Of a DNA stretch of 64,000 nt, positions 1 to 13,707 are shown piece after piece. The translations under genes and the position numbers were made by a program. How positions within the stretch are numbered: position 1 is the stretch's first letter; the number at the start of each line of letters is the position of its first letter. The notes below the pieces were generated by a model. That model saw only the letters and a list, made by a program, of their open reading frames with translations, was not told the origin of the DNA and searched no databases. The stretch is from Abditibacterium sp. (lineage in GTDB: Bacteria > Armatimonadota > Abditibacteriia > Abditibacteriales > Abditibacteriaceae): NCBI GenBank assembly GCA_965199495.1, contig CBDASK010000003.1, positions 1,184,001-1,248,000 on the forward strand, read 5' to 3'.

Positions 1-3000
1 CGGCAACTTCAAATGATCCCAGTATTCCAGCAAGATAAAAAATGTCAGGCTTGTCGTCACCACAAATTTGGTAACCCGCATAAGAAATGTGTTCTTCATA
101 TGCAGGGATATTTGAGAATTCTGTCAAGACTAAAACTGTATCGTCGCAAAACAGATCTGTCTCATCTGGATATGCAATTAGCCGATAGCCATCAGAAGTC
201 CTTTTGCGTAAAAGAACCTTCGGCGACTCAAAGAGTTCTTGATAGCGTGGGCCATACATCTCTCCTTTCCGGTAGTCGAGGAAGCGTCCAGACCATTGGA
301 CATCAAAGATGCCCAGCTCTTTTCCATCGACAAATCTCTTACTATTTCCTATCTCGGAGTCACTCAAGAGGTCGTATTTGGTAAACATTCCAGGCTTTTT
401 GCTGTGCATGGTCGCTCCAACATTAACATAGAAAATTTCACCAACTTTCCAAAAGTTGTTGCCATCGAAATTTGTCTCTTCTACTTCATCATCATCAAAC
501 CGTATCTGAAAATTGAAGTTTCCTAAAAATTCATTTTTAGAAATCGACTTCTTTTCAATGACCTTAATCTTTTCTACGGTTGAAAGAGAGACCTCAACCT
601 CGTAAGAGGAGTCAATTTCACATGATCTGATTAGGGGAATAAAGCAATGTCTTGACACGTCCTCAAAAACGTTCTCAGATCCGAAATGCATGATCGAGAT
701 CAAGTGGTTTTTAGACAAAATGAACTGTCTTAACTTAGTGCCATATTTTTCCATCGCCACTGAATTTGGAAGAATGAAAGAGCAATGGTGATTCGCTTTT
801 ATTAACCAAACACCTTGTATGATGAACGGGATAGATAAATCCCAGTGTCCGCTCAAGTAGCTCTCGAAATTCGATAATTTAGCGAGAGCATTTCTACCTG
901 CCTGAGCTGAGTCTGTCATACCCCAGGCGTTTTGATACGGCGGATTGCCCACAACCGCGTCGAATCCTCCGTTTTCTTTCTTTTGTCCGAATTGGTTGAA
1001 CCAGACTTCGGGGAACATCAGTTCCCAATGGAAGAATTTCTGTGCTTTGGCGACGGGCGAGAATTGTTTGCGGGCGAGTTCGACATCGGTGAGCACAGCC
1101 TCGAAGTTGAGGAACTCTTCGCCGAAATAGGCAGAAGTCCAGCCATCGGCGACGTTGACGAAGGGGCGGCGCAACGCGTCGAGCGCCGCGTCCGCCGCTT
1201 TTTTGGCTTTCACGTCGTCGGTCGTCGCGGTTTCGCGCGCCATAATATCCATGACTGCGCCGACCATCGTCGGCAGTTTGGCTTTGAACTGGTTCTCGAA
1301 CAGGTTGCCCTGTCCGTTATCTTTGGCGTTGGCTTTCGAGCCGCGCGCGCGTTTCAAATCGGAGAGCCAGGCGCCGATCAGGGCGTTGCCGGGTTTGAGA
1401 TGGTGATTGAGAAACGAGAGCGGCGCACTTTTGCTCATGGTGAACAGCCAGAGCGACAATTTGGCGAGTTCGACCGCCATCGGGTTCAAGTCCACGCCGT
1501 AAATGCACTTTTCCACCACCAGCCGTTTCGATTCGAGCTGTCGCGCCTCGGCGCCGTGGCTGCTCGTGCCCTGCGCGCCTTCGCGCGTCAGCGCCTCGCC
1601 ATAACTCTGGGCCAGAAAATCTGCCGCCTCGACCAAAAAGTGACCGCTACCCATCGCCGGATCGAGAACTTTTACTTCCAAAATCTCGGCGGGCGACAAA
1701 GGCCCGCTCACGGTCGAGTCGGCGGGCCGCGCCTCGCCGCGCACCAGCGGGCCGAGCGTGTTTTCGACGATATATTTAACGATGTAATCGGGCGTATAAT
1801 AGGAGCCGGACGATTTGCGTTTCGACTCGCGCCCGCCGTAAGCGAGATAATACTCGCCCGCCTCTTTGACGCCCGAAACTTTGCCGATGCGCGCGGTGAA
1901 TTTGCCTTTGTTCTCTTCGCGCGTCGCGCGCCATTTGTCCAGATCGAGCTGTTCCGCCGCCTTCAAATCGGCGGGCGCGACGTATTCGTCCACTTTCTTG
2001 GTGGTGCCGCGCCGCGTCACCACAAGTTCTTGGTCAGCAATCGCGGCGGCATATTCCAGCAAGCCCTCGTAAATCGAACCCAGATGGCGCACGTCGAGAT
2101 CGCGGTAAGTCACTTTTTTGCGCCCTTCGCCCTTTTTGGGCTGAGTGCGCGACAGCAAATCAATCGCGCGTGCCAGATGATAATCGTCCGGCCCAAACAC
2201 CTCTAAAAACGGGTGATTGTCGGGATCGAACAGCCCGCCATTGTAAGGCGGAATCACGTTGCTATAGCCGCGATCGATTAATCCGAACAGTTCGTGCAAA
2301 CGCTTCCACAAATCGAAACTGCCCTGCGAAAAATAGACGGTTTTGTCGGGATCGTCGTGCGTGGCCTTCACTTCGTCGCGCAACGCCTCGAACGAGTAAG
2401 TCTCGCGATAGAGTTCGACATCGAGCGGCAGCAAATCGCGGCTTTCGGCATAAAGCGCGAACAACAAACGATACATCAGCGCGAGTGATTCTTCGTAAAT
2501 CGTATCGAGTAAGGGCGCCGAATCGAGATAAGCGTCGGGCTGGCCAGCGAAATCGGGCGCGCCTTTGGCGATCCATTCGCTCAGTTCGGCAGAGGACGGA
2601 TCGGCGCGCAGACGGCGCAAAAAACCGGCGCCCAATTCTTCGAGCGCGTCGAAAACGTTCTTTTTGAGGTCTTGCCCCAGCGTTTTGGCGTGCTGCTCCG
2701 AACCATCAGCCACGCGCACCAGACGGGTCTTATCGCCCGCGTCGCGCGCCGTAAAAGCCTCGCCGCTTAGCAGGCGCAACGCGTAGCTCCAGGCGTTAAG
2801 CGCGCCTTCGCGCGTTTTCTCATCACTCGATTGCGCCGATTGCAGCAGAGTATCGAGATCGAATTCCAAAAACGCGCGCGAACGGTTACTCGCGTGCCGC
2901 CCGTAAATGCGGAAACGCAAGCCATCGGTCACGAGCGCATAAGGCACGCCGCTCGTCGCGAGCGCGCGGCCCGCGACTTCGCCGACCGGCAAATGCGTGT

Positions 3001-4066
3001 GCGCTTCGTCGGCGACATCGGGCAAGGGAGAATCCAAGCCGTCGCCCTGACGCGAAGGCACGACGTAAAGCAGCGCGGCAATCGTCTTTTCGCCCTCTTT
3101 GTTGCTGTAATTCGCGGCGGGCGCATTGCCATCGAAAGTCGTAACAGCGTCAGGCCGAAAAATTTGTCCGTCGCCGACGAATTCTACGCCGGATTGCCAA
3201 TTCCAACCCAGAGCCGCGCCCAGTTGCGCGAGCCAACCGCCCGGCGCCAACAAGTCGGCGGGTGTCGCGCTTCTGGCTTTGGCGGCTTCGGTTTTATAAA
3301 TTTTGGCAAGACTTTTCAGCCCATCTTTGAGATCTTTATCATCAAGGTCGAGACGCTCTTTTTCATCGAAAACGTGTTCAAGGTAATAATCGGAGAAAAA
3401 TGATTCGGAGTTTTTGAGATAGGGATACAAAAACGAGCGATAAGCCGTCGCTTTTCCGGTTGTTCCTTGTTGCGGGCGTTCGAGCGTAGCGCGAATGGCG
3501 GCTTCGGCCAGAGCGCGGTAGAATTTGGCGGCTTCAACGAGCGCCTTCTTGACGGCGGGCGCGCTGCGATTAAAGTCGGAGTGGCCCCAGGCGTTGCGCA
3601 AATCGCGCCCGATGGTGAGCGCGTAATTAACCGCTTTGTCGGGCGCGTAAGCCGCATCGCGCGTTTTTTTGTCGCGCCAGCTTTCCACCAGTCTGCGGGC
3701 CTCGCGGTCTTTATGAATTTCGTTATTCCACAGAAAAACGTCCTTCTTCGCCCAGATCGCGTCCAACAGCGCGAGCGGCATTTCGTCGCACAGCCGTTTC
3801 ACTTCGGGGAAGGTCGCGGCTTCTTTGCCCCATTCGGAGAGCGCGTGGTTTTCGCTCTCGCCGCGCGTCTGAGCGATGAGCGAAAGTTGCCGCACCGCTT
3901 GCCAGGCGCTGCCAAACCCGTCGTAGCCGTCGCTGGTCGAAAGCGACGCGCGCAGGTGCTCGATGGCGTGGCTGGTAAAGACGCACCAGGGCGAGGAAAC
4001 GGGATAACCGTGCGCGCCCTGTTCGCGTCGGCGCAATTCGATGAATTTGGCGATGGTCTGGGACAT
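1..4066 (-). CDS. Large N6-adenine DNA methyltransferase (Eco57I/type IIG, DrmMI-like) with N-terminal HEPN-like domain; 3' end off window
   Basis: Not in the ORF track, consistent with no stop inside the window. Segments read by hand in frame from ATG at 4066: RNAWGH (3598-3581), RKSSGSYYTPDYIV (~1820), VLDPAMGSGHFL motif I (~1670), VVGNPPY motif IV (955-935). Starts 4 bp after the helicase stop. Confidence 0.9.
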   Translation of the reverse strand, partial: MSQTIAKFIELRRREQGAHGYPVSSPWCVFTSHAIEHLRASLSTSDGYDGFGSAWQAVRQLSLIAQTRGESENHALSEWGKEAATFPEVKRLCDEMPLALLDAIWAKKDVFLWNNEIHKDREARRLVESWRDKKTRDAAYAPDKAVNYALTIGRDLRNAWGHSDFNRSAPAVKKALVEAAKFYRALAEAAIRATLERPQQGTTGKATAYRSFLYPYLKNSESFFSDYYLEHVFDEKERLDLDDKDLKDGLKSLAKIYKTEAAKARSATPADLLAPGGWLAQLGAALGWNWQSGVEFVGDGQIFRPDAVTTFDGNAPAANYSNKEGEKTIAALLYVVPSRQGDGLDSPLPDVADEAHTHLPVGEVAGRALATSGVPYALVTDGLRFRIYGRHASNRSRAFLEFDLDTLLQSAQSSDEKTREGALNAWSYALRLLSGEAFTARDAGDKTRLVRVADGSEQHAKTLGQDLKKNVFDALEELGAGFLRRLRADPSSAELSEWIAKGAPDFAGQPDAYLDSAPLLDTIYEESLALMYRLLFALYAESRDLLPLDVELYRETYSFEALRDEVKATHDDPDKTVYFSQGSFDLWKRLHELFGLIDRGYSNVIPPYNGGLFDPDNHPFLEVFGPDDYHLARAIDLLSRTQPKKGEGRKKVTYRDLDVRHLGSIYEGLLEYAAAIADQELVVTRRGTTKKVDEYVAPADLKAAEQLDLDKWRATREENKGKFTARIGKVSGVKEAGEYYLAYGGRESKRKSSGSYYTPDYIVKYIVENTLGPLVRGEARPADSTVSGPLSPAEILEVKVLDPAMGSGHFLVEAADFLAQSYGEALTREGAQGTSSHGAEARQLESKRLVVEKCIYGVDLNPMAVELAKLSLWLFTMSKSAPLSFLNHHLKPGNALIGAWLSDLKRARGSKANAKDNGQGNLFENQFKAKLPTMVGAVMDIMARETATTDDVKAKKAADAALDALRRPFVNVADGWTSAYFGEEFLNFEAVLTDVELARKQFSPVAKAQKFFHWELMFPEVWFNQFGQKKENGGFDAVVGNPPYQNAWGMTDSAQAGRNALAKLSNFESYLSGHWDLSIPFIIQGVWLIKANHHCSFILPNSVAMEKYGTKLRQFILSKNHLISIMHFGSENVFEDVSRHCFIPLIRSCEIDSSYEVEVSLSTVEKIKVIEKKSISKNEFLGNFNFQIRFDDDEVEETNFDGNNFWKVGEIFYVNVGATMHSKKPGMFTKYDLLSDSEIGNSKRFVDGKELGIFDVQWSGRFLDYRKGEMYGPRYQELFESPKVLLRKRTSDGYRLIAYPDETDLFCDDTVLVLTEFSNIPAYEEHISYAGYQICGDDKPDIFYLAGILGSFEVA

Positions 4067-8217: not shown

Positions 8218-10311
8218 TTACGCTCCTGCGGAAAAGATTTCGACAAAAGCCTCGTTCGTGATGGGGTGGGGAGATTGAATTGGCCCTTTGCAGCCGTGCT
8301 TCTCTAATATCTTTTGGAAATCGGCCCAGGGCACGGGAGATTGGAAATTAAAAGTCGAACCAAATTTTAACGCCATAAGTTTGCCCTCAGCTTGATTTTC
8401 CGTGACATCCATTAAATCGCTCCACTGAAAAACGCCCAAACGCCTAAATTGAGAAAACAGTGTTTTGGCGCTTCCAACATGGACTTCCTGCAAAGAGGAA
8501 CACGCCCTGATACTCCCCACATTTTGGAAATTTTTGTCCTGCGAGACATACCATAAGATGCGCGCGGGAGCCTTGATACCGCTGGGTCTGGCGGAGCGGT
8601 AGTAAACAGATTCCCTGTTTAGCAGCAGTTTGGTGATCGAGCCGAAAATTGTTTGTGAAGCCAAACCTTCGTCGAACAGTTCTTTGGCCCAATGCGGTCT
8701 AATCGGCACTATATAAGTGTTCAAGAAAGCGTCCGATACGCGTGTCGGCCACAACGAATCTTCGGCAAGCAGTGCTTGCTTTGGGGCGCTGATTAAATTT
8801 GCTTCCATCAATCGAGTGACTCTAACTTGATCATTTTCAGAAATCCAAGAATTTCTTTCGCCAGTCTCTTTAGCGAAATCTACCAGCTCTTGAGAACTTC
8901 CTATATTGGGCAACATATATCGAAGTAATCCGTGATCGGTCTTGAAAAAACCGTCCTCTAAAAATGCGCTCTCCATGATTGGGCTGATATGCGGATCAAC
9001 GATAAGAACAAGGCGGCTCTGGCTTTTAACGGCCATCTTTATCAAACGCGAGGAAAGGCTGCGGGCGATAGTTGGTGCGGAAGAAGGCGCGGAGGAAATT
9101 TCTCTGACGCGAATCATCGGCACCTTCAGAGAATCTCCATCTAATGTCGTAAAGAGGATGCCCAGTTCTCCCTGAGTATCGTTGAAAACGCGCAAGGAAT
9201 TCACTTCGTTGGGCCGAGACAGAAGACCGTTCAATTGAGCTTGCAAAACAGCCTTATTCTCCTGAGCACTGCGCTGAAACAGTTCTTCCTTTCCGTCCAA
9301 ATCATGTTGTCCGATACGTTGGCATTCGATATCTGTTGCGGCGAATTGAGCCGGGCGATACTCGGTTTCGCGTTGCAACTCATCCAAGTGGATAATCAGC
9401 GTGGCTGGACGAAGCACGCGAACCCCAGTGGATTCATAAATAGGGTTTTCTCGCTCCAAAATATTATCGTCGCGCGTTACGAAAAAGGGCACTTTGGCAG
9501 CGGCAGCGTGGGCGATTTGCCGGAGGTCAGAGCTATCACTTTCGCGAGTTGGCTCTGAAAACAGCGGCGTAAGTTGTTCCAGCGAACGCTCAAAGATTTG
9601 CGGATCAGATTCAATGCTTATGTAACGCGAAATTGCGGCGCGGTTCTGTTCGCGCTGCAAGGGATCAGCTCTCCGATGAACCTCGTTGAATATTTCAGGA
9701 GTCAAACAGAGTTCAATCGAATCTTGCAGCCAGTCGGCCAGAAGCGCTTTAGATTCCTCACTGCGTTGTGTTTCTTCTGCCCCTTCCAAATCGAAGAACA
9801 CGTTGGCATCCAAAACTACCGCAATTTTCCCTGCCAGAGTTTCTTCAATCCAAAGAGATTCCAAACTCAAGACCCCATTACTTTTCCACCAATAGGTGAG
9901 CGGCTTTCGCTGAACATTACGGCCTTCAAGTTCGTTACGAGCAACAAATCCCAGGTGAGGCCACATCGCGTTAACACTGAAATCTGTGCGACACTTCAAC
10001 CCGATACCGAGAGCCGCTTGCGTTTGAGCGGCAAGAGCCTTGACCAATTCCCGCGCAACGCCTTGACGCTGATATGCCTCATGGATACATAGATGGACGA
10101 TAGTTACACGTTCACGTGACTGACGAAATAGAAGGTAACCTACAAGCGTATTTCCTATGAGGGCGACAAGGATTCCCCCTTTAGAAATCGCATCCTCAAA
10201 CGCCCCTCCAGGAAAAAAGCCGAGAGTTTTCGAGTTTTTCCGCCATAAAATTTGGATGTCTGCCATGTGAATAGGCAGAGCACTGAGGATGGAGATGTCT
10301 ATGTTTGGCAT
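8218..10311 (-). CDS. GNAT acetyltransferase - PIN nuclease - ASCH/PUA-like fusion protein
   Basis: GNAT motif A HLCIHEAYQRQGVARELV; PIN VLDANVFFD...E...DxxQ...FVTRD; C-terminal IVPIRPHWAKELFD...ARILWYVS resembling ASCH/EVE. Confidence 0.8.
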   Translation of the reverse strand: MPNIDISILSALPIHMADIQILWRKNSKTLGFFPGGAFEDAISKGGILVALIGNTLVGYLLFRQSRERVTIVHLCIHEAYQRQGVARELVKALAAQTQAALGIGLKCRTDFSVNAMWPHLGFVARNELEGRNVQRKPLTYWWKSNGVLSLESLWIEETLAGKIAVVLDANVFFDLEGAEETQRSEESKALLADWLQDSIELCLTPEIFNEVHRRADPLQREQNRAAISRYISIESDPQIFERSLEQLTPLFSEPTRESDSSDLRQIAHAAAAKVPFFVTRDDNILERENPIYESTGVRVLRPATLIIHLDELQRETEYRPAQFAATDIECQRIGQHDLDGKEELFQRSAQENKAVLQAQLNGLLSRPNEVNSLRVFNDTQGELGILFTTLDGDSLKVPMIRVREISSAPSSAPTIARSLSSRLIKMAVKSQSRLVLIVDPHISPIMESAFLEDGFFKTDHGLLRYMLPNIGSSQELVDFAKETGERNSWISENDQVRVTRLMEANLISAPKQALLAEDSLWPTRVSDAFLNTYIVPIRPHWAKELFDEGLASQTIFGSITKLLLNRESVYYRSARPSGIKAPARILWYVSQDKNFQNVGSIRACSSLQEVHVGSAKTLFSQFRRLGVFQWSDLMDVTENQAEGKLMALKFGSTFNFQSPVPWADFQKILEKHGCKGPIQSPHPITNEAFVEIFSAGA

Positions 10312-10575
10312 TTCAGCGAAGGATTTTCGATTTCAAAACTTACACCTATCACTCCTCTGCGAGAGCGATATCAGAAGTTGAATAGCTTTTGAGTCGGCTT
10401 CTCAAGACGAAAGGTTTGTATATACACTTGGCATCTATAGTGAGGGAGATTTTCCGTTGCCATGCGCCCCCTCGACTTTGACGATCTGATTTAAGTGCGT
10501 TTGTTTATTTTACATCATGCACATTTGAAAGACATTGACTCTCTTCAAATCAGCTCTTTTGAACCTCAAACAATT

Positions 10576-10956
10576 ATGACAATACTACTTTCGATCAAGC
10601 CTGAGTTCGCCGAGAAAATTTTTGCTGGCTCGAAACGATACGAGTTCCGCCGCAGTATATTTAAGCGTTCTGTCACGAAAGTCGTGATTTACGTGACGGT
10701 GCCAGTTGCTATGGTTTTAGGTGAGTTCGTGATAGAAAAAGTGCTGCACGAAGAGGTGGAGCAGTTGTGGAAACAAACTGCCGCACATGCAGGAATAGAA
10801 GAGGAATTCTTCTATTCCTACTTCGCAGAAAAGGAAAAAGGATATGCAATCAAAATTGGTGAAGTTACTCGTTATCCAACGCCTTTTAACTTGCAAGAAA
10901 AATTTGGAGTCAATGCCCCTCAATCCTTTCTTTATATTCATCCCAATGATACATAG
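10576..10956 (+). CDS. ASCH domain protein
   Basis: MTILLSIKPEFAEKIFAGSKRYEFRR (GxKxxExR); ends APQSFLY; ATG at 10576 preferred over the ORF-track start. Confidence 0.9.
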   Translation: MTILLSIKPEFAEKIFAGSKRYEFRRSIFKRSVTKVVIYVTVPVAMVLGEFVIEKVLHEEVEQLWKQTAAHAGIEEEFFYSYFAEKEKGYAIKIGEVTRYPTPFNLQEKFGVNAPQSFLYIHPNDT

Positions 10957-12494: not shown

Positions 12495-12995
12495 TCATCC
12501 AAACAATTTCCGGTCGAACGCCCGATAATTAATCGCTTCGGCGACGTGGTGCATCTCGATATTCTCGGCGCCCTCCAAGTCCGCAATCGTGCGCGAAACT
12601 TTCAATATCCGGTCGTAACCGCGCCCGCTCAATCCGAACTGCGAAATCGCCGTCTTGAGCAAATCTTTGGTCGCCCCGTCCATCTCGCAAAACTCGCGCA
12701 GTTCTTTGGCTTTCATGCGCGCGTTGCAAGTCGCGCTCGACTCTTTCATGCGCGCCGTCTGTTGCGCCCGCGCACTCTGCACGCGGCGCCGAACTGTTGC
12801 CGAACTTTCGCCGGTGCGCTTGCCCATCAGTTCTTCGCTCGAAAGTCGCGGCACTTCGATGTGGATATCTATTCGGTCGAGCAACGGGCCACTTATTCTG
12901 GATAGATAGCGCCGGATTTGCGGTGCGGTGCAGGTGCAGGGCTTTTCCGATGGGCTTCCGGTCGGCGTTCCCCCCAGCAGGAAACCGCACGGACA
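12495..12995 (-). pseudogene. comM: 3' half of interrupted ComM/YifB Mg-chelatase-like AAA ATPase
   Basis: Frame reads CPCGFLLGG...CTC..QIRRYLSRISGPLLDRIDIHIEVP...LSGRGYDRILKVSRTIADL...HVAEAINYR. The expected upstream AMNP is absent and an in-frame TGA lies at 13010-13008. Confidence 0.9.
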
Positions 12996-13068: not shown

Positions 13069-13707
13069 TTAATTTGTGAGTTCAATGGGACGAAAATAGC
13101 CCAAAATGCAGCTCACGTCGCGCACACAGATTTGCGTGTGATTGAACTCATTTATGCCCGCGCCTTCATAAATAGGAGCGCCCTCCACAAAGGGGCCGCG
13201 CACGGTGTTATATACCGGCAAACCAATCTGTTCCCGAATTTGGTGTAGTAGATTAGTCACCGCGCAGTCCAGTTCGCGTTTCCGCAAACTTTTACCATTT
13301 GTAGGTAATGTCACGCCACGAACGCGCGAGAGTTCGGCCAATTCGTCGTAAGAAATTTTCAGTTGCGCAATGGCACTGCTGTCGGCCAAATCAAAGCAGC
13401 GTTTCATGTTGAGAACTGCGCCTAATACAAAAGGTCTGGCAATTTCTCCGCGCGAATTGTGCCCACCTGCGGCCCGCTCCTGCGCGAATTGAAGTGCGCG
13501 CAATGGATTCCTTTCCCAGAAATAAACACCCGAACCGAGCCAGTCATAGTCATTGCGGCTGAATTCAAGGTGGGGCGTCTCTCCATTCAAAATCGCTTCG
13601 CCAACGCTTTCATCACAACCATGAAATCCGATGATGGGCGAAGGCAGAAACTCGTAATTCGCCCAACGCGTAAGGTCATCTGACTCGGTGTTTCCCAACA
13701 GACTCAT
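13069..13707 (-). CDS. Putative ADP-ribosyltransferase-fold protein (candidate toxin)
   Basis: IGFHGC...NDYDWLGSGVYFWE...RALQFA...HTQICVR, an H-G / G-x-Y / terminal Q-strand pattern. Confidence 0.55.
   Translation of the reverse strand: MSLLGNTESDDLTRWANYEFLPSPIIGFHGCDESVGEAILNGETPHLEFSRNDYDWLGSGVYFWERNPLRALQFAQERAAGGHNSRGEIARPFVLGAVLNMKRCFDLADSSAIAQLKISYDELAELSRVRGVTLPTNGKSLRKRELDCAVTNLLHQIREQIGLPVYNTVRGPFVEGAPIYEGAGINEFNHTQICVRDVSCILGYFRPIELTN

Follow-up and report, generated by a model that had tools for sequence, protein, structure and literature searches.

The locus raises the question of whether a HEPN RNase has been built into the N-terminus of a defence methyltransferase, as an earlier note on this 64,000-nucleotide stretch of DNA (the window) had proposed, and, if so, in what system and to what effect. 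The gene opens with an ATG at position 4066 on the minus strand, 4 bases past the stop codon of a SNF2 gene, and runs for 1433 codons to position -235, beyond the window (G000:C3:1183765). An in-frame stop parting the extension from the methyltransferase, which would have undone the proposal, was looked for, and none occurs in those 1433 codons. The extra N-terminal residues are also present, although they number about 210 rather than the 200 or so first estimated; the 39 full-length HEPN-less relatives among the best 120 of 1275 homologue matches start at or near the position of residue 212. Residues R157 to H162 lie exactly at the nucleotides that the note gave for them (3598-3581), and the DGFGSAWQAVRQL helix was confirmed at residues 49-61. 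The features of the gene and its operon are collected in Table 1.

Table 1. Features of the HEPN-methylase gene and its operon, in window coordinates; negative positions lie beyond the window.
Feature	Position	Strand	Basis or remark
HEPN-fold domain, residues 1-197	3476..4066	-	AlphaFold pLDDT 92.4, pTM 0.89; top structural matches are HEPN proteins
RNxxxH motif, R157-H162	3581..3598	-	R, N and H invariant in 65/65 (best 120 of 1275 matches); secondary structure
Start of helix 2, residues 49-57	3896..3922	-	F51 invariant, W55 near-invariant, residue 49 variable
Linker from HEPN to native type IIG N-terminus, residues 198-235	3362..3475	-	Highly conserved, 0.86
Restriction-endonuclease-like domain, residues 236-440	2747..3361	-	Without PD-(D/E)xK triad; predicted inactive
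Conserved helical region between nuclease-like domain and methylase, residues 441-745	1832..2746	-	Conservation 0.73
N6-adenine methyltransferase core	932..1831	-	SAM-binding motif I at nt 1637-1669; NPPY at nt 935-946
Hypervariable TaqI_C-like target-recognition region	2..931, on to -235 beyond the window	-	Conservation 0.28
YprA/DUF1998 helicase with MIT_C (PLD-like) tip	-248 to -6193, outside the window (G000:C3:1177807-1183752)		Domain matches
BrxHII/DrmD-like SNF2 ATPase (ArmA equivalent), 1034 aa	4071..7175	-	PADLOC BrxHII, E 3.5e-152
Single-HKD phospholipase-D-type nuclease with C-terminal zinc ribbons, 259 aa	7172..7951	-	Pfam PLDc_2, E 2.7e-6; HxKx4D motif

The motif alone is weak evidence, since RxxxxH turns up in 44% of shuffles of the 200 residues (RNxxxH in 1.5%), and outside support was needed. 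Homologues with and without the extension were therefore surveyed with residues 212-700 as the query, which avoids selecting for the extension itself. Within the best 120 of the 1275 matches, an upper group of 72 lies above 330 bits and a lower one of 39 at about 172-188 bits; the 9 left over, fragments truncated at the N-terminus, were excluded. Within these best 120, the extension is present in 65 of the 72 upper-group members and in none of the 39 lower-group relatives. The seven extension-less members of the upper group start within helix 4, in the linker or further on, or else open on a brief unrelated segment; the tail of the HEPN domain survives in two of them, and all seven look like truncated gene calls. 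The 65 HEPN domains in the same set share 26-99.5% pairwise identity (median 44%), and only six of the 197 residues are invariant in 65/65, namely F51, G69, W130, R157, N158 and H162, half of them being the R, N and H of the motif; R154 is found in 64. This conservation in 65 homologues settles the motif as real and rules out both a chance occurrence and a gene-calling artefact. The DxFxxxWxA pattern expected upstream was borne out only in its aromatic positions, F51 being kept in 65/65 and W55 in 60/65, while its D varies: among the same 65 of the best 120 of 1275 matches, residue 49 is acidic in 49 (E 25, D 24) and N in 11. Residue 72 is acidic in all 65, but it sits just past helix 2.

The AlphaFold model of the domain, computed from the 65-sequence input, has an N-terminal helix followed by helix 1 (26-42), helix 2 (47-65), an insert (72-135), helix 3 (142-159) and helix 4 (170-196). 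Exhaustive structural alignment against 48,161 chains returned HEPN or HEPN-like proteins at all of ranks 1-17, some of them unnamed entries whose family labels are our own. The best match is 2hsb (Z 8.7, rmsd 3.0, 116 residues aligned), and others include an AMPylated HEPN toxin (7.7), 4nqf (7.5), Csm6 (7.2), AbiV (6.1) and AbiA (5.7). Single scores are modest, 8.7 lying within the range that the aligner calls common for helical proteins, so the evidence for the fold lies in the unbroken run of one superfamily together with the position of the motif. In the model R157 and N158 close helix 142-159 and H162 falls in the following loop, and it is at the end of the third core helix and in the next loop that the definition of HEPN in the text of PMC3710099 places the motif.

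Other searches gave nothing firm for the domain. Foldseek gave no match with E below 0.001 for either the HEPN-domain model or the two-domain model; among the non-significant rows for the latter are two DUF820-type nucleases and a Cas4, as would suit a restriction-nuclease fold. Pfam, PADLOC and NCBIfam placed no HEPN family above cut-off in residues 1-210, and the Pfam HEPN families were likewise below cut-off in the query, in 5 aligned members and in 15 further proteins; MauJ reached E 0.03 in one of the five aligned members, below the curated Pfam cut-off. Comparison with ApeA (2 loci) and MauJ (1 locus) aligned only RN..H, in two of the three, and was not significant. A PDB sequence search yielded 9 matches (E 0.26 to 9.4), none of them a HEPN, and no significant link to a characterised RNase family emerged from Pfam or from the ApeA/MauJ comparison. 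In the ESM Atlas one query reached three unnamed clusters (0.90) and a RiboL-PSP HEPN cluster (0.87), which we take as a lead only, and a second query had no match. The HEPN fold claimed for residues 1-200 is thus upheld by the exhaustive aligner and not by Foldseek; we regard the assignment as well supported by prediction, and the domain as a HEPN family missed by Pfam, NCBIfam and PADLOC.

Downstream of this domain, the linker shows the highest mean column conservation of the eight segments into which the protein was divided, a figure computed on those members of the 65 that exceed 1350 aa, 56 in all. The two-domain model, which spans residues 1-460 (pLDDT 93, pTM 0.89), suggests, by its pTM, that the HEPN domain packs in a defined way against the nuclease-like domain. 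In four clade members residues 236-440 score 99-140 bits against a profile of triad-bearing type IIG N-termini. The PD-(D/E)xK triad itself is found in 0 of 70 aligned clade members (the 65 with the extension and 5 of the 7 truncated ones) versus 39 of 39 in the lower group of the best 120 of 1275 matches, and the query retains only its first D. The domain is predicted from these alignments to be inactive. The methylase part matches Pfam Eco57I (E 3.5e-34) and PADLOC DrmMI (E 1.4e-106), with motif I and NPP(Y/W/F) kept across members; a Pfam search of the protein found no ABC ATPase domain. GC content falls sharply from 58% to 41% right after NPPY (window 2-931, minus strand), and the poorly conserved recognition region as a whole has 41% GC against 57-62% elsewhere in the gene, suggesting a recently exchanged specificity cassette. 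The label of DISARM/type IIG-like methyltransferase needs trimming: the layout is that of a type IIG enzyme, but with the triad gone this is not a working type IIG restriction enzyme, nor does it belong to DISARM class 1.

The operon reads, in order, PLD-zinc ribbon gene, SNF2, methylase and a DEAD/DUF1998 YprA helicase of 1981 aa. The helicase is a single gene whose best PADLOC match is DruE, and its tip is an MIT_C (PLD-like) domain (E 2.8e-23), as in the related loci L003 and L010. DISARM class 1 was rejected since the helicase is unsplit, with no DrmA/DrmB pair, and the SNF2 protein reaches 484 bits to NCBIfam DrmD, under the cut-off of 610; canonical BREX was rejected on the NCBIfam PglX cut-offs, the best score being 101 bits against 500. 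The gene following the helicase encodes an HTH protein on the opposite strand, and no GajB-like ArmD is found there. Of eight related loci, four have enough upstream DNA to show the PLD gene, and it is present in 4/4; SNF2 occurs in 5, and 3 preserve the whole helicase N-terminus, the remaining loci being too short or rearranged. The PLD gene is the conserved first gene of the operon. Neither the PLD-type helicase tip nor the extra PLD gene was detected in 11 stretches around HEPN-less relatives.

We assign the operon to the ARMADA clade, a system named in 2025 (Bell et al., bioRxiv 10.1101/2025.09.15.676423; PMC12458937), as a variant. It shares with ARMADA Type I the BrxHII-like SNF2, the PglX-like adenine methylase, the fused single-gene YprA/DUF1998 helicase and the lack of ArmD, and also a reversed gene order of the kind that the text of PMC12458937 gives for many archaea and cyanobacteria. 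It differs in the N-terminal HEPN on the methylase, in the conserved PLD-zinc-ribbon gene at the head of the operon, and in a helicase tip of the MIT_C/PLD type seen in Druantia III DruE, where Type I has Vsr; because of this last difference we file it as a variant and not as canonical Type I. The helicases neighbouring four HEPN-fused methylases are listed as Type I in Table S1 of PMC12458937 (at least 4 of 6 accession prefixes), the match being by accessions adjacent to three of the methylases and three numbers away from the fourth, which lends indirect support to a Type I position in the YprA tree; neither the remaining two of the six prefixes nor any of three contig accessions appears among the Table S1 entries listed. 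HEPN is not mentioned in the main text or examined supplements of that preprint.

Relatives without the extension help to place the loss of the nuclease triad. In 17 of 20 loci with HEPN-less relatives, the stretch examined contains no SNF2 or YprA neighbour, and the 16 alignable methylases of those 17 loci all keep the triad (16/16). Six HEPN-less methylases from ARMADA-type loci, on the other hand, have no HEPN domain and, by eye, no triad either. One could suppose that the HEPN replaced a dead DNase, but since the HEPN-less ARMADA methylases seem triad-less too, there was no simple swap of DNase for RNase, and triad loss would seem from these alignments to accompany recruitment into ARMADA, not acquisition of the HEPN.

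The clade comprises at least 65 proteins and spans several phyla, the source names including Acidobacteriota, Deltaproteobacteria, Thermodesulfobacteriota, a cyanobacterium (strain Trichocoleus sp. DQ-U1) and Eremiobacteraeota. In the window's own phylum the HEPN domain was found in 1 of 201 sampled genomes, namely the one studied here. A profile search of 1.84 billion representatives gave 33 matches, 24 of them new. Fourteen of the new ones were inspected and are methylase fusions, frameshifted or partial pieces, plus P0123 (the split at locus L004); the other 10 are partial matches of 62-140 aa. A search for short forms found 7 proteins, each of them either partial or with its end in the linker or a little beyond it. 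No stand-alone relative of the domain occurs among the 33 profile matches or the 7 short ones, and judged by their sequences the relatives found are fusions to this methylase or fragments; a plasmid search gave no match. Two quick trees place the HEPN-bearing methylases on one side of a well-supported branch (21/21). As far as this sample shows, the fusion appears to have arisen once, so that the 65 sequences document purifying selection and not independent origins. Scores suggest independent recruitment of the methylase from a stand-alone type IIG enzyme, which we do not claim because the trees are unrooted, quick-method and long-branched.

Some members depart from the common arrangement. At L004:5529-5531 an in-frame TAA parts HEPN from methylase right after the linker, with an ATG three codons on, and P0069 begins at the same position. 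The split may be natural, or it may reflect a pseudogene or a misassembly of a low-coverage genome. At L005:14548-17853 a second, divergent SNF2 (31% identical to that of the window) lies between the HEPN-methylase and the YprA helicase. At L007:2-1293 the HEPN and linker are fused out of frame to a late methylase region, most of the gene being deleted or misassembled.

The operon lies within an element of about 30 kb between duplicated comM 3' ends, an element that also carries a large serine recombinase. The comM 3' end occurs four times (window 12495-12884, minus strand, and G000:C3 1121065, 1166183 and 1254725), 88-100% identical at the protein level, as one whole gene and three duplicates. 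These mark comM as the integration site of elements arrayed in tandem, of which at least two have a recombinase beside the duplicate. Directly upstream of the operon are a GNAT-PIN fusion (8218-10311, minus strand) and an ASCH-domain gene (10495-10956, plus strand), which match the PADLOC candidate system PDC-M11A/B. Two of the comM duplicates have immediately before them a 212-aa gene without a Pfam match, itself led by a short ORF (window 13069-13707, minus strand, and G000:C3 1166371-1167009); with the duplicate included, the two copies are 72% identical in DNA sequence over about 1.4 kb. In the neighbouring element a 2121-aa protein carries a NACHT/AAA-like ATPase but has no PADLOC match at 1e-20 (G000:C3 1159367-1165732; L002:2370-8732, minus strand); further ORFs of very large size and a cluster resembling type I restriction genes accompany it.

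What, then, might the HEPN domain do? We see an about even prospect that it is a latent RNase backing up DNA restriction, held in one chain with a dead nuclease, a methylase and a recognition domain within an ARMADA-like operon. By analogy with ARMADA Type II, the methylase would mark host DNA while the SNF2 and YprA motors, with two PLD-type nucleases, would attack unmarked DNA. HEPN active sites form across a dimer, so a lone methylase would stay silent. Two copies would be paired once unmethylated sites become numerous or a phage inhibitor blocks the complex, and the paired HEPNs would then cut RNA and stall the infected cell, much as PrrC does with type I systems, only with no separate sensor ATPase. 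This reading draws on the invariance of the motif in 65/65 at a median identity of 44%, on structural ranks 1-17, on the motif position and on the lack of a stand-alone relative among the 33 profile and 7 short matches, as well as on the linker being the most conserved segment and on the two-domain pTM. It also has precedents, as HEPNs linked to restriction-modification have been proposed to be reversibly inhibited backups (in the text of PMC3710099), and the HEPN on the DUF499 ATPase of BREX-related systems to be a last-resort effector (in that of PMC12839542). Against it stand the modest single scores (best Z 8.7) and the Foldseek null.

A more specific version, which we judge unlikely, would make the methylase sensor and RNase effector in one chain, a tripwire in which the pairing of two copies assembles the HEPN site and shuts the cell down. 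The pairing agent would be a dimeric phage DNA-mimic inhibitor or clustered unmethylated sites, and the idea is motivated by BrxX, which according to PMC12839542 is monomeric and of which Ocr holds two copies in one complex. Were it true, inhibiting the system would itself trigger the toxin, the operon would be a distinct ARMADA subtype with PLD nucleases instead of Vsr, and the rule against HEPN RNases being joined to DNA methylases would have a clear exception.

Abortive action in any form has to be weighed against what is described for ARMADA Type II, the one ARMADA in which abortive defence has been examined, in which all four genes and the methylase motif are required (PMC12458937, PMC13463889, as far as their text goes) and which protects without killing the cell, despite a RelE-like RNase domain in ArmD (text of PMC12458937). 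The HEPN might instead be an active RNase and a core, first-line part, cutting phage transcripts or other RNA near the DNA-bound complex at each event with no cell death, and so taking the role that the RelE-like domain may play in Type II. No ArmD gene follows the helicase here, which agrees with such a substitution, as do the need for all four Type II genes and the non-abortive defence. Moreover, whereas the backup HEPN on DUF499 is patchy (1370 of 2446 taxa in the data given in PMC12839542), the domain shows no clear loss in the present clade (65 of 72 members among the best 120 of 1275 matches, the other seven looking truncated), and on this point a core role fits equally well. The six HEPN-less ARMADA methylases sampled show nonetheless that the wider system occurs without the domain, and we hold a core role to be somewhat unlikely. 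That the fold serves no RNase function at all, being a dimerisation or nucleic-acid-binding module, or acting on another substrate such as DNA, with RNxxxH kept for binding, strikes us as quite improbable. The best structural matches do include non-catalytic HEPNs such as sacsin and nucleotidyltransferase substrate-binding domains, there is no significant sequence link to a characterised RNase family in the searches above, and the upstream acidic residue lies outside its canonical helix-2 position; yet R, N and H are three of only six invariant residues in 197, a pattern that the text of PMC3710099 ties to RNase activity. Even less probable, in our opinion, is an addiction toxin of the mobile element, restrained by an operon partner and freed on loss of the element. 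The location within the comM-flanked element with its recombinase and the patchy spread (1/201 genomes sampled in the phylum) would suit it, but no MNT or other antitoxin-like gene is conserved alongside in L003-L006, and addiction needs no fusion to a 1400-residue methylase.

Returning to the latent RNase as the preferred reading, and by analogy with other defence-linked HEPNs, the built-in domain likely gives this rare ARMADA variant a second, RNA-destroying line of defence. How foreign DNA is sensed and how effectors are switched on is a standing question for ARMADA, DISARM and BREX alike, and with an RNase built into the methylase the sensing step can be read out directly. The 2013 survey states, in the text of PMC3710099, that the HEPNs of restriction-modification systems fuse to nucleases, helicases and ATPases 'but not to the methylases', against which at least 65 proteins from several phyla carry a HEPN on the methylase chain. 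They strain that rule without quite overturning it, since the HEPN abuts the dead nuclease domain and Table 1 of that survey already lists occasional HEPN-M fusions to nucleic-acid methylases.

A literature search, mostly outside subscription journals, brought up no account of an ARMADA, DISARM or type IIG methylase that carries a HEPN; HEPN is unmentioned in the available text of the mBio ARMADA paper (PMC13463889), and the fusion is not described in that of PMC12839542, PMC11090510, PMC12904381 or the MANTIS preprint. The architecture, which the earlier note did not recognise from any described system, is therefore new in one respect and familiar in another: the HEPN-methylase fusion appears undescribed, while the host system, an ARMADA-clade operon, and HEPN add-ons to defence systems as a theme are already known.

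The closest sequence relatives of residues 212 onward, among the best 120 of 1275 matches, are stand-alone Eco57I-like type IIG restriction-modification enzymes, which have the same order of nuclease, helical, methylase and recognition domains but keep the triad (39/39 and 16/16), have no extension and in 17 of 20 loci no SNF2 or YprA neighbour. PrrC and RloC, as described in PMC3710099, likewise tie an Rx4H HEPN to methylation-based DNA defence in a proposed second-line role. Membership of that group was rejected, as there is no ABC ATPase N-terminal to the HEPN, which is itself N-terminal; PrrC joins an ABC ATPase to its HEPN in a protein of its own that accompanies a type I system, whereas here the HEPN heads the methylase chain. 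The Type-1 BREX-related DUF499/Hma systems (PMC12839542, in its accessible text) also place an N-terminal HEPN on a core subunit of an ATPase-methylase-SNF2 system, but there it is optional and sits on the DUF499 AAA+ ATPase, while in the present clade it is carried by the methylase, with a YprA helicase as the third gene.
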